NCBI GenBank assembly: GCA_021399345.1
Contig: JAAFKI010000175.1
Coordinates: 35,233 to 99,232 of the forward strand
Source of the DNA: Candidatus Heimdallarchaeota archaeon
GTDB lineage: Archaea > Asgardarchaeota > Heimdallarchaeia > Heimdallarchaeales > Heimdallarchaeaceae
Direction: 5' to 3'
Length of the DNA: 64,000 nt
The notes under the pieces are model-generated. The model was given only the letters and a program-made list of their open reading frames with translations, searched no databases and had not been told where the DNA came from. Numbering within the stretch: the stretch's first letter is position 1; each line of letters starts with the position of its first letter. The position numbers and the translations under genes were made by a program. Shown here in pieces: positions 1-6,225 of the stretch.

Positions 1-1924
1 AATTTCAGGAAGTGAAATTTATGACTATCGAAGCAAGTAATAAACAAAAACAATCAGCATCTGAAGACAAGAATCTGGTAAAACATGGAGAAGTCAAAAG
101 CACAACTCAAGCACCATTAGCTACATTCTATGAGGTTATACCTTTGAGAATCAAGACGGAATTAATGTCTGTTCGAGAGTGTGAAAGGTTGCGAAGAATA
201 ACCGAAAGAGATACTAGAATCATCCAGCACTACCTTAGAATCATCAAACACAATGAGGAGAAAATTCTACGAAAAGATGGTAAAGTCAACACTTCCCTTC
301 TGGATAATTTGACCCTAACCACTTCTTTGAACACGAAGAACAAGTTACGAACTTCCGTTCCTCACGACTTGAAGAAGCGTTATCCCCGTTGTTCACATGA
401 TGAATTCCAAGAATGCAGAGACAAAGCTATTTGGACTTACGAGAGTTGGAAAGCACAGCAAGATGTTTCTAAAAAGGAACTGAGTAGACCTGAATTCAAG
501 AAGAAAACTCCTCGACCCATGTTCAAAGGAAAAGAAGGCAGAGGTACTTTTCAGATACATTTCAAACTTGATAATACTGATGCTAGACTTTGGCTGGAGT
601 TAAGGGATTCGCTTGATACAAAACGATCTGACACTCGAACCCATCAGAGACTATGGCTACCATTAGCTTACTCACCTTACCATGAAAAGAGGTTGAAACT
701 AGAGAACATCAAGATGGTGGAACTAGTATATAAATCCAAAGAACAGCAATGGTGGGCACATTTTACCCAACATATTTCTGTCCCAAGTTATCAATCCACT
801 CTTTCACCTGCAGTGTTAGGAGTAGATCTGGGAATAAAGAAAACAGCTGTTGCTGTGTTACTTAATCCTACAGGTAAAGTAATCATGGATGAAATCCGCT
901 TTATCGTTGATAAGGAGAGGCAGTCAAAAATATGGCAACTTAGTAGACAGATCAAAGAAACTCAGAGGAAGTTGAATAAAAGTCTCAACAACCGTCAGCA
1001 TACTAAACAGCTTAACAATACACTCTTCCGTCTACGTAGAAGACGACGTTCTATTACAGAACAAGAACTAGGATTTGCAGTTAACCAATTGGTTGATTTC
1101 ATCCTTCAGTTGAAGAAGAGGTATAATCTGTTTGTGTCTGTTGGCTATCCTAAGTATATCCAGAGACGTCAACCTCGAGGTAGTGGAAACAAATCCTTAC
1201 GTAAGCAAGTGCATAAGTGGTGTTATCGCTACTTTATCATTAAGCTGAGAAACCAGCTAGCTAAGTATGGATTTGAACCGTATCGAGTGGTAGCTGTTAA
1301 TGAAAGTTGGACCTCTAAAAGATGTTCCAGATGTAATTCTACAAACACTACCCGTACAGGACAAGGACAGTTCAATTGCCATGATTACAACTACGAACTA
1401 GATGCCGACTTGAACGGAGCAAAAAACATAGGGAAGAGGTTGATTAGGTATGCGTTAAAACCAAACTTCAGCAGTATCAAAGATCTACTGACAGAAGAAT
1501 GCTATCCTATACAACACTACAAGTGTTTCCTGCCCTTAGGTCAATGGCTTAAGTGATTCTGCAAAGAATACATCGTTTAGTAAAATTCGGTGTGCGAGGT
1601 CAAGAATCCGTCATCTCACTAATTAGACTGATTCGATAATGAGTGACCTTAATCAGGAGATGATTCCTTTGAACAGCTTGCTGTTCCAGAGACTGGTACT
1701 GTATTTTATGAGAGGTTTTTCTTTTCATTACTTACAGTTTCGTACGACGACAATCCATGCCACGCCAGTTTAGGAGGAGTTTTGAAAGAATCTGCTTGAA
1801 AACTTAGGTTTTTGTGTAGAGACTAACTCATCATAGGCCAGGCTTAACTACAAATTAAGTCTGACTACAACCTCTCCCTCCTTTTTTCTTTTACACTTGT
1901 CGTTTAGTATAACGAGAAACTCAA
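1..1924 (+). mobile_element. right part of a tnpB-carrying IS200/IS605- or IS607-like element; left end lies outside the window
   Basis: tnpB plus structured 3' region ending near GAGAAAC-TCAA (1914-1924). No transposase visible in the window. Confidence 0.5.
12..1556 (+). CDS. tnpB: TnpB/Cas12f/Fanzor-superfamily RNA-guided endonuclease, RuvC-II-rearranged type
   Basis: RuvC-I VLGVDLG (D272), bridge-helix region, canonical RuvC-II position reads VSVGYP (G378), VNESWTSKRCSRC (E431, C438, C441), CHDY (C456, Y459), RuvC-III DADLNGAKNI (D466). Start may be ATG at 21. Confidence 0.9.
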   Translation: MKFMTIEASNKQKQSASEDKNLVKHGEVKSTTQAPLATFYEVIPLRIKTELMSVRECERLRRITERDTRIIQHYLRIIKHNEEKILRKDGKVNTSLLDNLTLTTSLNTKNKLRTSVPHDLKKRYPRCSHDEFQECRDKAIWTYESWKAQQDVSKKELSRPEFKKKTPRPMFKGKEGRGTFQIHFKLDNTDARLWLELRDSLDTKRSDTRTHQRLWLPLAYSPYHEKRLKLENIKMVELVYKSKEQQWWAHFTQHISVPSYQSTLSPAVLGVDLGIKKTAVAVLLNPTGKVIMDEIRFIVDKERQSKIWQLSRQIKETQRKLNKSLNNRQHTKQLNNTLFRLRRRRRSITEQELGFAVNQLVDFILQLKKRYNLFVSVGYPKYIQRRQPRGSGNKSLRKQVHKWCYRYFIIKLRNQLAKYGFEPYRVVAVNESWTSKRCSRCNSTNTTRTGQGQFNCHDYNYELDADLNGAKNIGKRLIRYALKPNFSSIKDLLTEECYPIQHYKCFLPLGQWLK

Positions 1925-1945
1925 TAGAACATCAACTAACATAGA
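1557..1945 (+). ncRNA. putative omegaRNA (scaffold to about 1921-1924, then guide)
   Basis: About 400 nt with no ORF directly after tnpB, containing many nested complementary segments (see findings). Boundaries are inferred. Confidence 0.65.
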
Positions 1946-1965
1946 TAAAAAAGAAATTCAATGTT

Positions 1966-2538
1966 TTAATCTAACCCAAATTCTACTCTCTTTCGTTCTA
2001 CATCTTTCATTAGTTCCTGCGCAAAGGTTCTGAATGCATCCTCTACTTTTTCACCTGTTTTTGCTGATGTAATAAAGAAAGAATCTTTTGGTATATTTAA
2101 CTCTTGAATAATGGTATCAATATTTTCTTGTGAAACAGCAATTTGTTCATTTAAATCTGCTTTGTTTCCTATAAGGAAGTATATTGCATCTTCTTCAACA
2201 CTCTCTAAACCTTTCTTCCATGCTTTCAAAGAACTTAAAGTGTTATTTCTTGTGAGATCATAAACTAAAAAACACCCTCTTGCTCCTCGATAGAATTTTT
2301 CTCTAACTGATGCAAATCGTTCTTGTCCGCCTATATCACTTATTAGAAACAACACTTCATCATTTTCAACAAATAATTGTTTGCTTAGAATGTCTACTCC
2401 TATTGTCATAAGATATGATGCTTGGAATCGGTTGTGTACAAATCTAGTAATAAGAGAGCTTTTACCTACTCCTGGGTCTCCTAGTAGAACTATTTTGAAA
2501 ATATACTTCTTGCCTTGCCCCTCGTCTTCAGTCATCAT
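1966..2538 (-). CDS. Rab-like small GTPase (eukaryotic signature protein)
   Basis: FKIVLLGDPGVGKSS, TIGVD, DIGGQERF, FYRGA, GNKADL, TSAKTG. No C-terminal prenylation Cys. Confidence 0.93.
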   Translation of the reverse strand: MMTEDEGQGKKYIFKIVLLGDPGVGKSSLITRFVHNRFQASYLMTIGVDILSKQLFVENDEVLFLISDIGGQERFASVREKFYRGARGCFLVYDLTRNNTLSSLKAWKKGLESVEEDAIYFLIGNKADLNEQIAVSQENIDTIIQELNIPKDSFFITSAKTGEKVEDAFRTFAQELMKDVERKRVEFGLD

Positions 2539-2604
2539 TTTCCCCTTGTCAATTCTCTTTTCGTATTTTTTTATTAAGTTTGTGCTTGTCTTTGCTTGTT
2601 TTTT

Positions 2605-3018
2605 CTAATTATTAAACATTTTAACTAGTTCTACTGCTGTTTCTTCAGCTAATTCTATCTTAGGTGGAATCAAGTTTAAACCATCTTCAGGAAATCGAGG
2701 TACTAAGTGGAAGTGTATGTGATCAAGTATTTGTCCTGCATCTCTACCATTGTTCTGAATAATATTCAAGCCTGTAGCTCCGGTTATTTGCTTTAATTTA
2801 CTTGTAATTTCAGGTATTTTTTTTGTAAAATTCATTTCAGTTTCTGATAAATCGAATATTTGTTCAAGGTGTTTCTTTGGCACGAACAAACTATGACCTT
2901 TTGACATGGGATATATATCTAGAAATACTTTAATTTCGTCATCCTCATAGAGAGTATAGCTTGGCAATTCACCTTTCACAATCTTACAAATAAGACATTC
3001 TTCATCCATATCAATCAT
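2605..3018 (-). CDS. HIT family nucleotide hydrolase
   Basis: CLICKI, FLDIYP..GHSLFVPKKH, HIHFHLVPR histidine triad. Confidence 0.93.
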   Translation of the reverse strand: MIDMDEECLICKIVKGELPSYTLYEDDEIKVFLDIYPMSKGHSLFVPKKHLEQIFDLSETEMNFTKKIPEITSKLKQITGATGLNIIQNNGRDAGQILDHIHFHLVPRFPEDGLNLIPPKIELAEETAVELVKMFNN

Positions 3019-3095
3019 GCTCTCTTCTTTTCCTAGTGGTTTACTTATCTTACTTTTCAGTTTTTTGTATTGCAGCTGAAATAGTAAACAAAAAT

Positions 3096-4160
3096 CTATG
3101 AAACTTCAACATTTAATCCTTTGTCTTGATATAGGATATAGGCATTACCTCCGGCACGTATTATTGCTTGGGCAACCTCTTTTTGCTTTTCTGGAGAATA
3201 GGCTAGGAATGAACCACCATTTCCGCTCCCTAATAGTTTACAAGCAAGGGCTCCAGCGTTTTTTGCGCTTAAAATTAATTCTTGCATCTGATTTGTGACA
3301 TTTTCAAAATAGTTTTGTTGGAAATGGTGATGGGAATCGATTAATTCAACTAGTTCCTCTGGTTTAAATTCCTGGTTTTTCATTTTACGATATCCATCTC
3401 TTACAACATCCCTAATTCCTAAAACAGCTACTAGTCTTTGTAATTTTTTACTAGTATTTTCTTTATACGCTTGATGTACTTCACTAAAGGATGAAGATTG
3501 TAAATCAAAGGAAGTATCTCTTTTGTTCATTATTTCTATTCCTTGATTTATCTCCTCTTTCCTCTTTCTTATCGTTTGAATAGTTTCTTTTTTTGTTAAA
3601 GTATCACCAATAACTATACCAGTAAGTTTAGTATCAAGTTTTTCGAGCTTGTAAGGTTCCCTACACTCTAAATGGAGCATATCTCCAAACACACTGGCAT
3701 ATTGATCCATCATTCCTCCCGGTTCTCCCAAGTTTACTACTTCTGCTAAATATGCATTCCATGCCAATTCTTTCTCTGTTAAATTTGAATCTGAGGCTTT
3801 ATCAAAAAACCCAACCAAGGCCGAACAAAGTGCAGATGAAGAGGAGAGTCCTTTCCCTATTAGGATGTTGGAATTAACTTCAACGTTCGCCCCAAAGTTC
3901 TTTGGAAGATATTTTTGAAAAATATTGAAAACAGAACGAATATAATCTCTTTTTTCGTTTAGTGGCTGTGTTTCATTACTAAACTTAACTTCTTTACCTA
4001 AATCTGTTAGTGTGAATTTAATAATTCCACTATTGTTTGTTTTGCCTTTAACTTCTATTCTTTGGTTGACTGCAATAGTTATAACTTCAAGGTTCATGTA
4101 ATCTACATCTTCACCAAAAAGACAAACTCTTCCAGGAGAAGACGAAATTATCTCTAGCAT
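3096..4160 (-). CDS. GHMP kinase, galactokinase-like
   Basis: SPGRVCLFGE, IGKGLSSSSA, GMMDQ, KLLGSGNGG. Confidence 0.85.
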   Translation of the reverse strand: MLEIISSSPGRVCLFGEDVDYMNLEVITIAVNQRIEVKGKTNNSGIIKFTLTDLGKEVKFSNETQPLNEKRDYIRSVFNIFQKYLPKNFGANVEVNSNILIGKGLSSSSALCSALVGFFDKASDSNLTEKELAWNAYLAEVVNLGEPGGMMDQYASVFGDMLHLECREPYKLEKLDTKLTGIVIGDTLTKKETIQTIRKRKEEINQGIEIMNKRDTSFDLQSSSFSEVHQAYKENTSKKLQRLVAVLGIRDVVRDGYRKMKNQEFKPEELVELIDSHHHFQQNYFENVTNQMQELILSAKNAGALACKLLGSGNGGSFLAYSPEKQKEVAQAIIRAGGNAYILYQDKGLNVEVS

Positions 4161-4161
4161 T

Positions 4162-5502
4162 CTACTCCGTCCATTTCTCTTGATATTCGGTAGCTGCCCT
4201 CTTTACTTTTTCAATATCAATAGTCAAATAGTTTCCATCTTGAAAAACAATTTCCCCATCAATCATAGTCATACTTACATCTTTACCACTAGCTGAATAA
4301 ACTAAATGGGAAACTGGGTTGTAAAGAGGAAAAGAGTTTACTTCATCAATATTAGCCATTACTAAATCAGCTTTTTTCCCTACTTCAACTGAGCCTATCT
4401 CTGTTCCCCAGTTTATAGCTTGAGCTCCCTCTATTGTTGCCATTCTAAGAACTTTCTCTGCAGGTAAAGCCAGTTCATCTAGATGTTTAATCTTCTGTAA
4501 AAATGCAGCTAAACGCATATCTTGAAACATATCAAAATTATTATTACATGGAGGACCATCTGTCCCAATCCCAACAATAATCCCCAACTTATGATATCGT
4601 AAAACATCACATATTCCTGAAGCCAATTTACTGTTACTGCTAGGATTGTGAGTTATTCGGGTATTTGTTTGTTCAACTAAATTATATTCATCATCATCTA
4701 GCCATATTCCATGAGCTAGTATTGTTTCTGAGCCTAGAGCATCTAGTTTTTTCAGCGATCTAAAATAGCTATCTCCAAATATTCTTACAACTTCTGCACA
4801 TTCAGCTTGAGATTCTGAAGCGTGTGAATGAATCATTAGATCATCATATTCGTCTTTTGTCTCCACAACAAGTTTCATCAATTCAGATGAACAGGATAGA
4901 AGAAATCTTGGATTTAAAGAATATTTAACTCTCCCATTTTGTGTTTGATGATATTCATCAATTTGCTTTCTAGCAGATTCAATTACTGTTTCAGCATCTT
5001 CAATTATTATTTCCGGAAAATCATTACTGTAATCCATCAGCATTTTACCGATTCTTGTCCTGATTCCAATTTCTTGTGCTGCTTTAATTCCAGAATCTGA
5101 ATCATGATTAGTAAGCATATCATTTGCTGTAGAAGTACCTGTTCTTATCATTTCAGCAAAACCTAGAAGTGATGAATTGTATACTTCTTCTGCAGTAAAC
5201 TGAGCTTCTCCTGGTAAAACCACCTTCTTTAACCAATCTAGAAGGGCATAATCATCCGCCTTTCCTCTTAGAAATGTTTGAACACTGTGACTATGTGTGT
5301 TTACTAAACCTGGGAGTAAAATTTTGTTGTTTCCGTCAATTATTTTTGTTGCTGAAAATTCCTTATGAATTTCCTTTTTTGTTCCCACACCATGAATTAA
5401 TCCATTAGACACATAAACAGCAGCATCTTTGATAATACTGTTTTTTTGATTGCAGGTAACTATTATATCCGCTTCTAAGATTGTATCTTTCAACTTGACC
5501 AT
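4162..5502 (-). CDS. metal-dependent amidohydrolase, MTA/SAH-deaminase-like
   Basis: PGLVNTHSH, HSHASE, AHGIW, HNPSSN.KL.SG, GTDG, GSVEVGKKADL. Start moved to ATG 5502 (MVKLKD) to avoid overlap with the UDG gene. Confidence 0.87.
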   Translation of the reverse strand: MVKLKDTILEADIIVTCNQKNSIIKDAAVYVSNGLIHGVGTKKEIHKEFSATKIIDGNNKILLPGLVNTHSHSVQTFLRGKADDYALLDWLKKVVLPGEAQFTAEEVYNSSLLGFAEMIRTGTSTANDMLTNHDSDSGIKAAQEIGIRTRIGKMLMDYSNDFPEIIIEDAETVIESARKQIDEYHQTQNGRVKYSLNPRFLLSCSSELMKLVVETKDEYDDLMIHSHASESQAECAEVVRIFGDSYFRSLKKLDALGSETILAHGIWLDDDEYNLVEQTNTRITHNPSSNSKLASGICDVLRYHKLGIIVGIGTDGPPCNNNFDMFQDMRLAAFLQKIKHLDELALPAEKVLRMATIEGAQAINWGTEIGSVEVGKKADLVMANIDEVNSFPLYNPVSHLVYSASGKDVSMTMIDGEIVFQDGNYLTIDIEKVKRAATEYQEKWTE

Positions 5503-5568
5503 TGGTTTAATTGGGAATAGCTTAATAAATCCTCTTTTTTTTGTATTTTTACAGAGGAGATAGAATCT

Positions 5569-6225
5569 ATGGCAAATGATGAGATAGCAAAGTTGACAGA
5601 AGATATCGTCATATGTGAAGCTTGCCACCTGAAGGATAGTAGGACTCAAGTTGTTCCAGGTCTCTATGGTCCAAAGAATGGTTTGTGTATAATTGGGGAA
5701 GCACCAGGTTATCATGAAGATAAACAAGGTATACCTTTTGTTGGTAGATCAGGTAAGCTACTTGACAATATGCTCTCAGGTATTGGTTTAGAAAGGAAGA
5801 AGGATCTGAGTATCCTTAATGTAGTAAAATGCCGTCCAACTACAGAAGATAAAAACAATAGAACACCAACGAATTCAGAGTTGAAGTTCTGTGGTGAGAG
5901 ATGGTTATTCAAACAATTGAAATTACTATCACCAAAACTTATTGTAACCATTGGTTCAATAGCCTTGAGGTTCTTCATTCCCTCTGCGGCAGTAACTAAG
6001 TATGTTGGAAAATCTTATGACACAGATCTTGGAATAAAATTGTATGTAACATATCATCCTGCATACATTCTACGTAACTATAACTTAATGGATGTTTACA
6101 ATGAACATTTCGAAGGTATTAAGAATTTATACCTAAATCTCTTAAATCAAAATAAAATAGCTTCTGATAACAAGAGATCAATCAAAGGACAAGGAGAACA
6201 GAAATCTTTGACAGATTTTCTGTAA
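5569..6225 (+). CDS. udg: family 4 uracil-DNA glycosylase with C-terminal PIP-box
   Basis: CEAC Fe-S ligands, GEAPG, PFVGRSG, NVVKCRP, TYHPAY; C-terminal QKSLTDFL. Confidence 0.92.
   Translation: MANDEIAKLTEDIVICEACHLKDSRTQVVPGLYGPKNGLCIIGEAPGYHEDKQGIPFVGRSGKLLDNMLSGIGLERKKDLSILNVVKCRPTTEDKNNRTPTNSELKFCGERWLFKQLKLLSPKLIVTIGSIALRFFIPSAAVTKYVGKSYDTDLGIKLYVTYHPAYILRNYNLMDVYNEHFEGIKNLYLNLLNQNKIASDNKRSIKGQGEQKSLTDFL

Follow-up and report, generated by a model that had tools for sequence, protein, structure and literature searches.

Genomic Locus and TnpB Protein

The window analyzed here is a 64,000-nt stretch of an Asgard archaeal genome (Candidatus Heimdallarchaeota archaeon, family Heimdallarchaeaceae; assembly GCA_021399345.1, here called G000, 88.6% complete), which corresponds to positions 35233-99232 of contig C115 (JAAFKI010000175.1). 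Near its start lies a tnpB-like gene, followed on the same strand by a structured non-coding block that was examined as a candidate omegaRNA scaffold of this TnpB. A host gene for a Ras/Roc-family small GTPase is located downstream in convergent orientation, and a HIT-family gene is located beyond it. An initial annotation, made from the window sequence, had proposed that a nested RNA of approximately 370 nt follows tnpB and ends in a duplex beside the guide. The features discussed below are collected in Table 1.

Table 1. Features at the tnpB locus and at related loci. Positions are those of the window unless a locus is named.
Feature	Position	Strand	Remarks
tnpB-like gene	21-1556	+	511 aa; Pfam Cas12f1-like_TNB (1.5e-12), weak OrfB_IS605
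Conserved, probable omegaRNA scaffold	1556-1831	+	Alignable in 16 copies as far as 1831, divergent beyond; reaches ~276 nt past the stop codon
5' hairpin 1	1556-1560/1565-1569	+	Invariant; 98.8% paired; begins at the final stop-codon base
5' hairpin 2	1570-1575/1588-1593	+	94.8% paired; 4 pairs changed on both sides
Predicted pseudoknot core	1597-1649	+	1597-1602/1644-1649, enclosing hairpin 1604-1612/1626-1634 and segment 1639-1644
Long-range nested helices	1654-1784	+	1654-1658/1780-1784, 1665-1668/1772-1775, 1671-1677/1680-1686, 1690-1697/1764-1771
3' subterminal hairpin	1792-1819	+	Closes 12 nt short of the scaffold end; two-sided changes in 5 pairs; 89-91% paired
Terminal six bases of the scaffold	1826-1831	+	Pair with 1639-1644, ~190 nt upstream; 100% paired in 16 copies
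Predicted guide	1832-1851	+	First ~20 nt of the flank, length approximate; hypervariable in every copy
tRNA-Asp(GTC) relic	1829-1851	-	Gene positions 7-29 (D-arm), 22/23 identical; from blastn of orthologous tRNA-Asp and locus alignment
Pyrimidine/T-rich tract	1866-1890	+	Oligo-T at 1883-1888; possible archaeal oligo-T terminator (putative function)
Host intergenic DNA	1886-1965	.	Downstream of the Ras-like GTPase gene; 93-97% identical in G016, G018, G024, G008 and G023
Ras/Roc-family small GTPase gene	1966-2538	-	Pfam Ras 6.2e-43; host gene convergent with tnpB
HerA/DUF87-adjoining loci	L049:329-3049 (-), L050:352-2538 (-), L056:384-3059 (+), L052:1399-3051 (+)

Relatives of the tnpB product are annotated as transposase or TnpB of Heimdallarchaeaceae/Hodarchaeota (about 85 family proteins), and the Asgard-specific clade to which it belongs consists of proteins of about 480-540 residues. 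The Asp residues of its RuvC-I and RuvC-III motifs align with those of canonical haloarchaeal TnpBs, and the RuvC-II Glu of the latter aligns with an invariant Gly. An alternative Glu, conserved across the whole Heimdall/Hod clade, is located two residues before a WTS motif, just ahead of the zinc finger. The protein adjacent to the non-coding block carries the catalytic triad and the zinc-finger/TNB region of an OMEGA system, with a rearranged RuvC-II, and its active site is plausible. This type of TnpB was judged to be probably active by Altae-Tran et al. 2023 (PMC10691335). The second zinc-finger pair of the window protein reads C-H-D-Y (1381-1395, residues ~454-458) compared with C-x-x-C in its relatives, so that the fourth zinc-finger Cys is replaced by Tyr in the alignment with family members.

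Conserved Block Downstream of tnpB

The comparison was based on forty copies of this Heimdallarchaeaceae TnpB family, which were divided into three clades; clade A comprises 16 copies, including that of the window. G000 contains two further copies, one on contig C64 with a protein 82% identical and a distant one on C121 (44%). A DNA search of the 31 genomes of the family also detected copies in 14 more genomes from the genus. Each full blastn match, representing 15 other copies, stopped at query positions 292-296, equivalent to 1831-1835 of the window. The 16-copy alignment is conserved through the terminal ...TAACTCAT and is unrelated from the next base onward. In each of the 16 clade-A copies, the block accordingly closes abruptly with the CAT at 1831, and not at approximately 1921-1925, where a drop in conservation had been expected by the initial annotation. 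Comparable termini were observed for clade B (C121-like; ...AACTCAT) and for clade C (...AAATCAT), for which the two complete genomes of genus g5 gave 10 and 14 matches, and the flank diverges after CAT in both clades.

The conserved non-coding block covers 1540-1831 in the 16 copies, on the tnpB strand and 3' of the open reading frame (ORF), and equivalent blocks are present in clades B and C. It extends ~276 nt past the stop codon, which replaces the length of ~370 nt first assigned. Its 5' limit is uncertain, and the scaffold may start inside the ORF at ~1530-1545; conservation at third codon positions along tnpB exhibited no clear rise at the ORF end.

Consensus Fold and Predicted Guide-Adjacent Pseudoknot

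Folding of single sequences did not give structures convincingly above those of shuffled sequences (for 1556-1945, z = -1.87, with 6 of 100 shuffles as good), so that comparison with the other copies was needed. RNAalifold applied to the 16 copies of 1540-1831 gave a nested consensus containing 20 pairs with compensatory changes. A curated nested fold of 80 pairs, located within 1556-1831, was 93.1% paired across the 16 copies, compared with 35-47% for slid controls in which the 3' partners were shifted. In this fold 23 pairs were changed on both sides, compared with 8.7 +/- 2.1 in shuffles, and none of 500 shuffles reached this number. These values for the scaffold up to 1831 bear out the covariation among homologous copies that had been anticipated, and the conserved, covarying block upholds the proposal of a long structured omegaRNA-like element located essentially downstream of the tnpB ORF.

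The best-supported helices are 1570-1575/1588-1593, 1604-1612/1626-1634, 1654-1658/1780-1784, 1671-1677/1680-1686, 1690-1697/1764-1771, and the hairpin 1792-1819. Among them, 1690-1697/1764-1771 was 100% paired, with two covarying pairs that alternate between CG/UA and GC/AU, while 1604-1612/1626-1634 was 97.7% paired and also contains two covarying pairs. The long-range helices enclose a variable arm (1698-1738), which is mostly deleted in two copies with its outer stem kept. Many G-U pairs of the curated fold are invariant, which is consistent with RNA of the + strand only. Two of the hairpins had been recognized from the single sequence, namely that over the stop codon (1556-1569), which is invariant in the 16 copies, and GAACAG/CTGTTC (1671-1686), which is kept across them. 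Two other pairings proposed at that stage were not supported: 1611-1617/1657-1663 was 87% paired with no covariation, and 1628-1633/1651-1656 was 60% paired and conflicts with the better hairpin 1604-1612/1626-1634.

The scaffold terminates in a helix formed between its last six bases and 1639-1644. This helix is invariant inside clade A, and changes on both strands were observed elsewhere: G-C is exchanged for A-U at its third pair in the C121 copy and for U-A at its fifth pair in clade C of genus g5. A duplex beside the guide that defines the scaffold end does exist, as the initial annotation assumed, but it is 1639-1644/1826-1831 and not 1736-1741/1916-1921. A second helix, between AGGTCA at 1597-1602 and TGACCT at 1644-1649, had been noted as a possible pseudoknot; it was 84% paired with 2 compensatory pairs in clade A; in clades B and C, its strands are wholly substituted by different sequences that are again complementary. 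The two helices cross each other and are directly adjacent, and since both of them covary, the guide-adjacent bases and the distant 5' segment are predicted to constitute a pseudoknot.

Interpretation and Alternative Explanations

We consider it highly probable that ~1556-1831 (+) is the omegaRNA scaffold of a tnpA-less IS200/IS605-like element encoding a Heimdallarchaeaceae TnpB with a rearranged RuvC-II. The omegaRNA would be transcribed together with tnpB and bound by TnpB through the pseudoknot core, and the flank from 1832, that is the next ~16-20+ nt, would be carried as the guide. The omegaRNA could then steer TnpB to cut DNA that bears a transposon-adjacent motif (TAM) and the guide sequence, as in ISDra2, and such TAM-dependent cleavage would favor retention or homing of the element. 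Termination of the primary transcript may occur at the oligo-T (1883-1888).

The longer RNA of the initial annotation, with 1736-1741/1916-1921 as the outermost duplex, an end at ~1921-1924 and a guide at 1925-1944, can hardly be correct. Its pairings all exist where they were placed, and its nested 3' domain is indeed the minimum-energy structure of 1730-1925. This fold is however within chance (z = -1.37, 20 of 200 shuffles as good), and several of the listed pairings are not conserved across the 16 copies. In an alignment anchored at the element end, the domain 1736-1921 was 54.9% paired, compared with 43-51% for slid and 52.8% for shuffled controls. Its 5' strands are already taken by covarying helices, its 3' strands fall in flank that differs in every copy, and conservation stops at 1831, not at 1921. 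Moreover, the DNA from 1886 onward is common to genomes without the element at that site, which identifies the supposed GAAAC...TCAA end (~1920-1924) and the supposed guide (1925-1944) as host intergenic DNA. The stretch 1832-1921 was rejected as an RNA scaffold and is regarded as flank that pairs with the scaffold by chance. The correction of this spurious 3' domain illustrates that AT-rich flank easily folds onto a real scaffold.

The folds could also be mainly single-stranded DNA signals of the transposon right end, which are recognized by a transposase and not used as RNA. It is true that IS200/IS605 ends bear subterminal hairpins, that the hairpin 1792-1819 sits 12 nt from the end opposite a conserved 9-bp hairpin at the left end, and that base-pair conservation by itself cannot tell DNA from RNA. 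Such a role is nonetheless improbable, as a fold of ~275 nt containing long-range helices and a pseudoknot goes far beyond a subterminal hairpin, the many invariant G-U pairs would correspond in DNA to weak G-T pairs, with A-C mismatches on the opposite strand, and no Y1 transposase was found in four of the five genomes searched. Both roles can coexist for the last hairpin. Very unlikely, too, is a structured 3' untranslated region (UTR) or other non-guiding RNA, for example one affecting mRNA stability, or an RNA scaffold of a regulatory TnpB that lacks nuclease activity. The non-canonical catalytic site would agree with it, and there are precedents of exapted TnpBs that have long 3' UTRs (PMC10691335), but conservation of Asp, the alternative Glu, and Asp extends across the family, and the element is mobile, with differing contexts and up to 14 copies per genome. 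The block also ends where the flank begins, and a helix is located beside that point, which is a signature of an omegaRNA.

Several observations weigh against the assignment as an omegaRNA scaffold. The single-sequence fold of 1540-1831 gave z = -1.67, and no Rfam covariance model matched positions 1-6000 of the window at E <= 1. The Cys-to-Tyr replacement in the zinc finger suggests that the window copy of the protein may be impaired, as far as the alignment tells. The TAM of clade A was not fixed by the empty-site searches or by comparison of the left ends. Y1_Tnp was not found in G000, G005, G008, and G022, where serine recombinases were not searched, and one unlinked Y1_Tnp match was present in G006. 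Lastly, the contigs from RNA libraries that cover the block (described below) are few and of low depth, carry no strand or end information, and could be DNA carry-over.

Comparison with Known Systems

The arrangement resembles that of the ISDra2 TnpB omegaRNA of Deinococcus radiodurans, which is encoded on the tnpB strand at the 3' side of the gene, with a scaffold that ends at the right end of the element and a guide consisting of the flank. In ISDra2, the omegaRNA bases -5 to -3 beside the guide form pairs with -103 to -105, stacking on stem 1 (PMC10097598). A similar pseudoknot of guide-adjacent bases and a distant upstream segment, abutting another stem, is predicted here from sequence alone. 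Unlike ISDra2, whose structured scaffold of 116 nt overlaps the 3' end of the ORF, the core of ~235 nt is located wholly past the stop codon; it is about twice as long, and the pseudoknot partner is ~190 nt away. The two also differ in that there is no sequence similarity, the protein has 511 residues with a rearranged RuvC-II, and no tnpA is nearby. The RNA is therefore of a known kind, a TnpB omegaRNA, and its novelty lies in the unusually long core and in a cleaner separation from the ORF than in ISDra2.

Likeness was also noted to the RuvC-II-rearranged TnpB clades and Asgard-linked TnpBs (PMC10691335), which share the Gly in place of the canonical Glu, the alternative conserved Glu, and the archaeal distribution. 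In these clades, too, the region downstream is conserved up to and including a T, after which a hypervariable stretch begins. Unlike in them, the upstream gene, where present in the copies examined, encodes a HerA/DUF87 ATPase and not a Cas1 homologue, and no conserved motif was observed to close the hypervariable stretch, although a T-rich tract is frequent. The duplex located immediately 5' of the guide is also reminiscent of the tracrRNA:crRNA of Cas12f, where such a duplex is recognized by the protein; a repeat:anti-repeat analogy had already been drawn in the initial annotation. Unlike the Cas12f repeat:anti-repeat duplex, 1639-1644/1826-1831 is intramolecular, and no CRISPR direct-repeat array was detected in positions 1-4000 of the window. 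Fanzors possess a rearranged RuvC catalytic glutamate and long omegaRNAs that reach beyond the ORF. The Fanzors of eukaryotes and giant viruses likewise combine a TnpB-superfamily nuclease with its own omegaRNA scaffold (PMC11832414). The present element differs in being prokaryotic, carried by an Asgard archaeon, and the likeness of the proteins considered here is at the superfamily level.

For the omegaRNA of an Asgard-specific TnpB clade, the comparison provides a base-precise boundary between scaffold and guide and a covariation-supported fold with a pseudoknot. These offer a basis for reconstitution of the nuclease and for comparison with the guide RNAs of bacterial TnpB, Fanzor, and Cas12.

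Element Ends and Mobility

The left end of the element is located ~195-220 nt upstream of the window start. It bears the conserved 9-bp hairpin, opposite the subterminal hairpin of the right end. The bases 5' of the left end are conserved as TTG followed by TCAT or GCAC, although the share of these that belongs to the element is ambiguous. No tnpA was found near the window tnpB. Since the copies occur in differing genomic contexts, with up to 14 per genome, the element is considered to be mobile.

An empty-site allele, which the initial annotation had suggested looking for, was found in clade C but not in clade A. In clade C, the G005 allele of a G006 copy is empty, and its right flank resumes right after CAT. 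For clade A, searches that started from the G022:C3 locus and from the left flank of the C64 copy gave no contiguous pair of flanks. The empty site (L103, G005:C1:2122600-2122860, compared with L102) contains 14 extra bases that are similar to the right-end terminus and stand just before the CAT preceding the target. They could be an excision footprint or an older relic.

In at least 6 clade-A copies, the left end is located on or just after the 3' end of a gene for a HerA/DUF87 (TrwB-like) ATPase of 550-907 residues. This gene is full-length in 4 of these copies, and only its last ~50 codons are left in 2 of them; its last codons and stop codon run into the element in most. Several such pairs were found within one genome, G008. 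The pairing suggests a larger mobile element or a preferred target.

RNA-Library Contigs and the T-Rich Tract

Contigs from RNA libraries of three metatranscriptome studies matched 1343-1593, 1443-1576, 1624-1774, 1510-1673, and 1641-1865. The last of these bridges 1831 into the flank at 95% identity. None was found over 900-1342 or past 1865, and run X17 yielded none; such absence of cover is not evidence. As a sign of expression, the contigs are a weak hint.

A T-rich tract was present within 70 nt past the scaffold end in 9 of 16 clade-A copies, compared with 3.8% of random genome windows. In these nine (the window copy and L021, L008, L009, L010, L022, L027, L025, and L030), it lies 14-45 nt past the scaffold end. 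It was found in 1 of 10 copies of clade B and in 0 of 14 of clade C. The tract could be a terminator for the guide RNA or for the upstream co-oriented gene. That it is part of the element, which would make the guide internal, is not favored because its distance varies from 14 to 45 nt and because, apart from the one copy in ten, it is absent from clades B and C. The T-rich tract is also similar to a purine tract of the left end read as its reverse complement.

Flank, Predicted Guide, and the tRNA-Asp Relic

The host DNA shared from 1886 onward with five sister genomes includes the GTPase and HIT genes wherever the retrieved sequence reaches. In these five genomes, an intron-containing tRNA-Asp(GTC), and not a TnpB element, adjoins the shared intergenic DNA. 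Such tRNAs were detected using ARAGORN with introns allowed, as they are missed with the default settings. Across sister genomes, an intron-less or intron-bearing tRNA-Asp is located right beside the GTPase gene.

In the window, a relic of the D-arm of tRNA-Asp directly abuts the right end of the TnpB element. In sister genomes, intron-less tRNA-Asp alleles agree with the predicted guide in 19 of its 20 positions; this match immediately follows CAT, and CAT also precedes the target in the sole empty site found, which belongs to a different clade. Against the intron-bearing tRNA-Asp of G000 itself, the match is 17 of 20 and its upstream side is replaced. This intact gene is located at C115:30980-31119 (-) (L034:2981-3120), 4.1-4.3 kb before the window start. 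It carries an extra 31-nt intron at gene position 24/25, which is 2-5 nt from the equivalent junction, and with this intron the match loses its motif side and its first guide positions.

The intact tRNA-Asp and the relic are parted by a 5.9-kb island, which contains a HEPN/AbiV gene, small membrane proteins, a metallophosphoesterase, and the TnpB element. The HEPN/AbiV-like gene, of an abortive-infection family, was located at L034:3568-4368 (+) and the calcineurin-like phosphoesterase gene at L034:5716-6639 (+). This content fits a small defense or cargo island at a tRNA hot spot. The possibility that the tRNA fragment represents an integrase attachment (att) site was also considered, and no integrase gene was found in the 5.9-kb island.

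A comparable layout is known for tRNA-Thr of Caldiarchaeum subterraneum (Sugahara et al. 2012, PMC3293823), in which the intact gene has an extra intron at 24/25 and a 5' tRNA fragment is located kilobases away, with mobile DNA between them. Unlike that case, the tRNA here is tRNA-Asp, the intervening DNA is the 5.9-kb island, and the right end of a TnpB element directly adjoins the fragment, so that the fragment would serve as the guide. The layout matches the tRNA-disruption model of these authors (PMC3293823). One may further speculate that TnpB and its omegaRNA act as the homing nuclease of a tRNA-linked island by cutting 'empty' intron-less tRNA-Asp alleles, with the non-canonical intron as an immunity feature or footprint, although we regard this as unlikely. 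If true, it would tie RNA-guided transposon nucleases to the way in which introns and fragments of tRNAs arose in archaea. A tRNA-Asp relic as the putative guide beside an intron-bearing tRNA-Asp is in any case a testable lead on mobile elements that generate tRNA fragments and non-canonical introns.

At the orthologous site of G030 (L017:1214-1500), only ~290 nt separate the tRNA-Asp from a degenerate tRNA relic. A remnant of ~110 nt, from the right end of a second TnpB family, closes this stretch and adjoins the relic at the same CAT|CAT junction. In G000, the right end of this second family was found downstream of TnpBs of ~430 residues on contigs C19, C59, and C146. In another clade-A copy (L027:1782-1875, G008:C80), the 19 bases after the scaffold end, where the guide would lie, recur with one change ~50 nt downstream.

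Other TnpB Families in the Genome

A total of 23 TNB-domain matches were found in G000, including the three copies of the window TnpB family. The others comprise one family with open frames mostly of ~350-450 residues (at least 14 matches) and one of ~645 residues (4 matches). Contigs with TNB-domain matches include C30, C58, C98, C151, C99, C19, C59, C146, C89, C88, C129, and C4.

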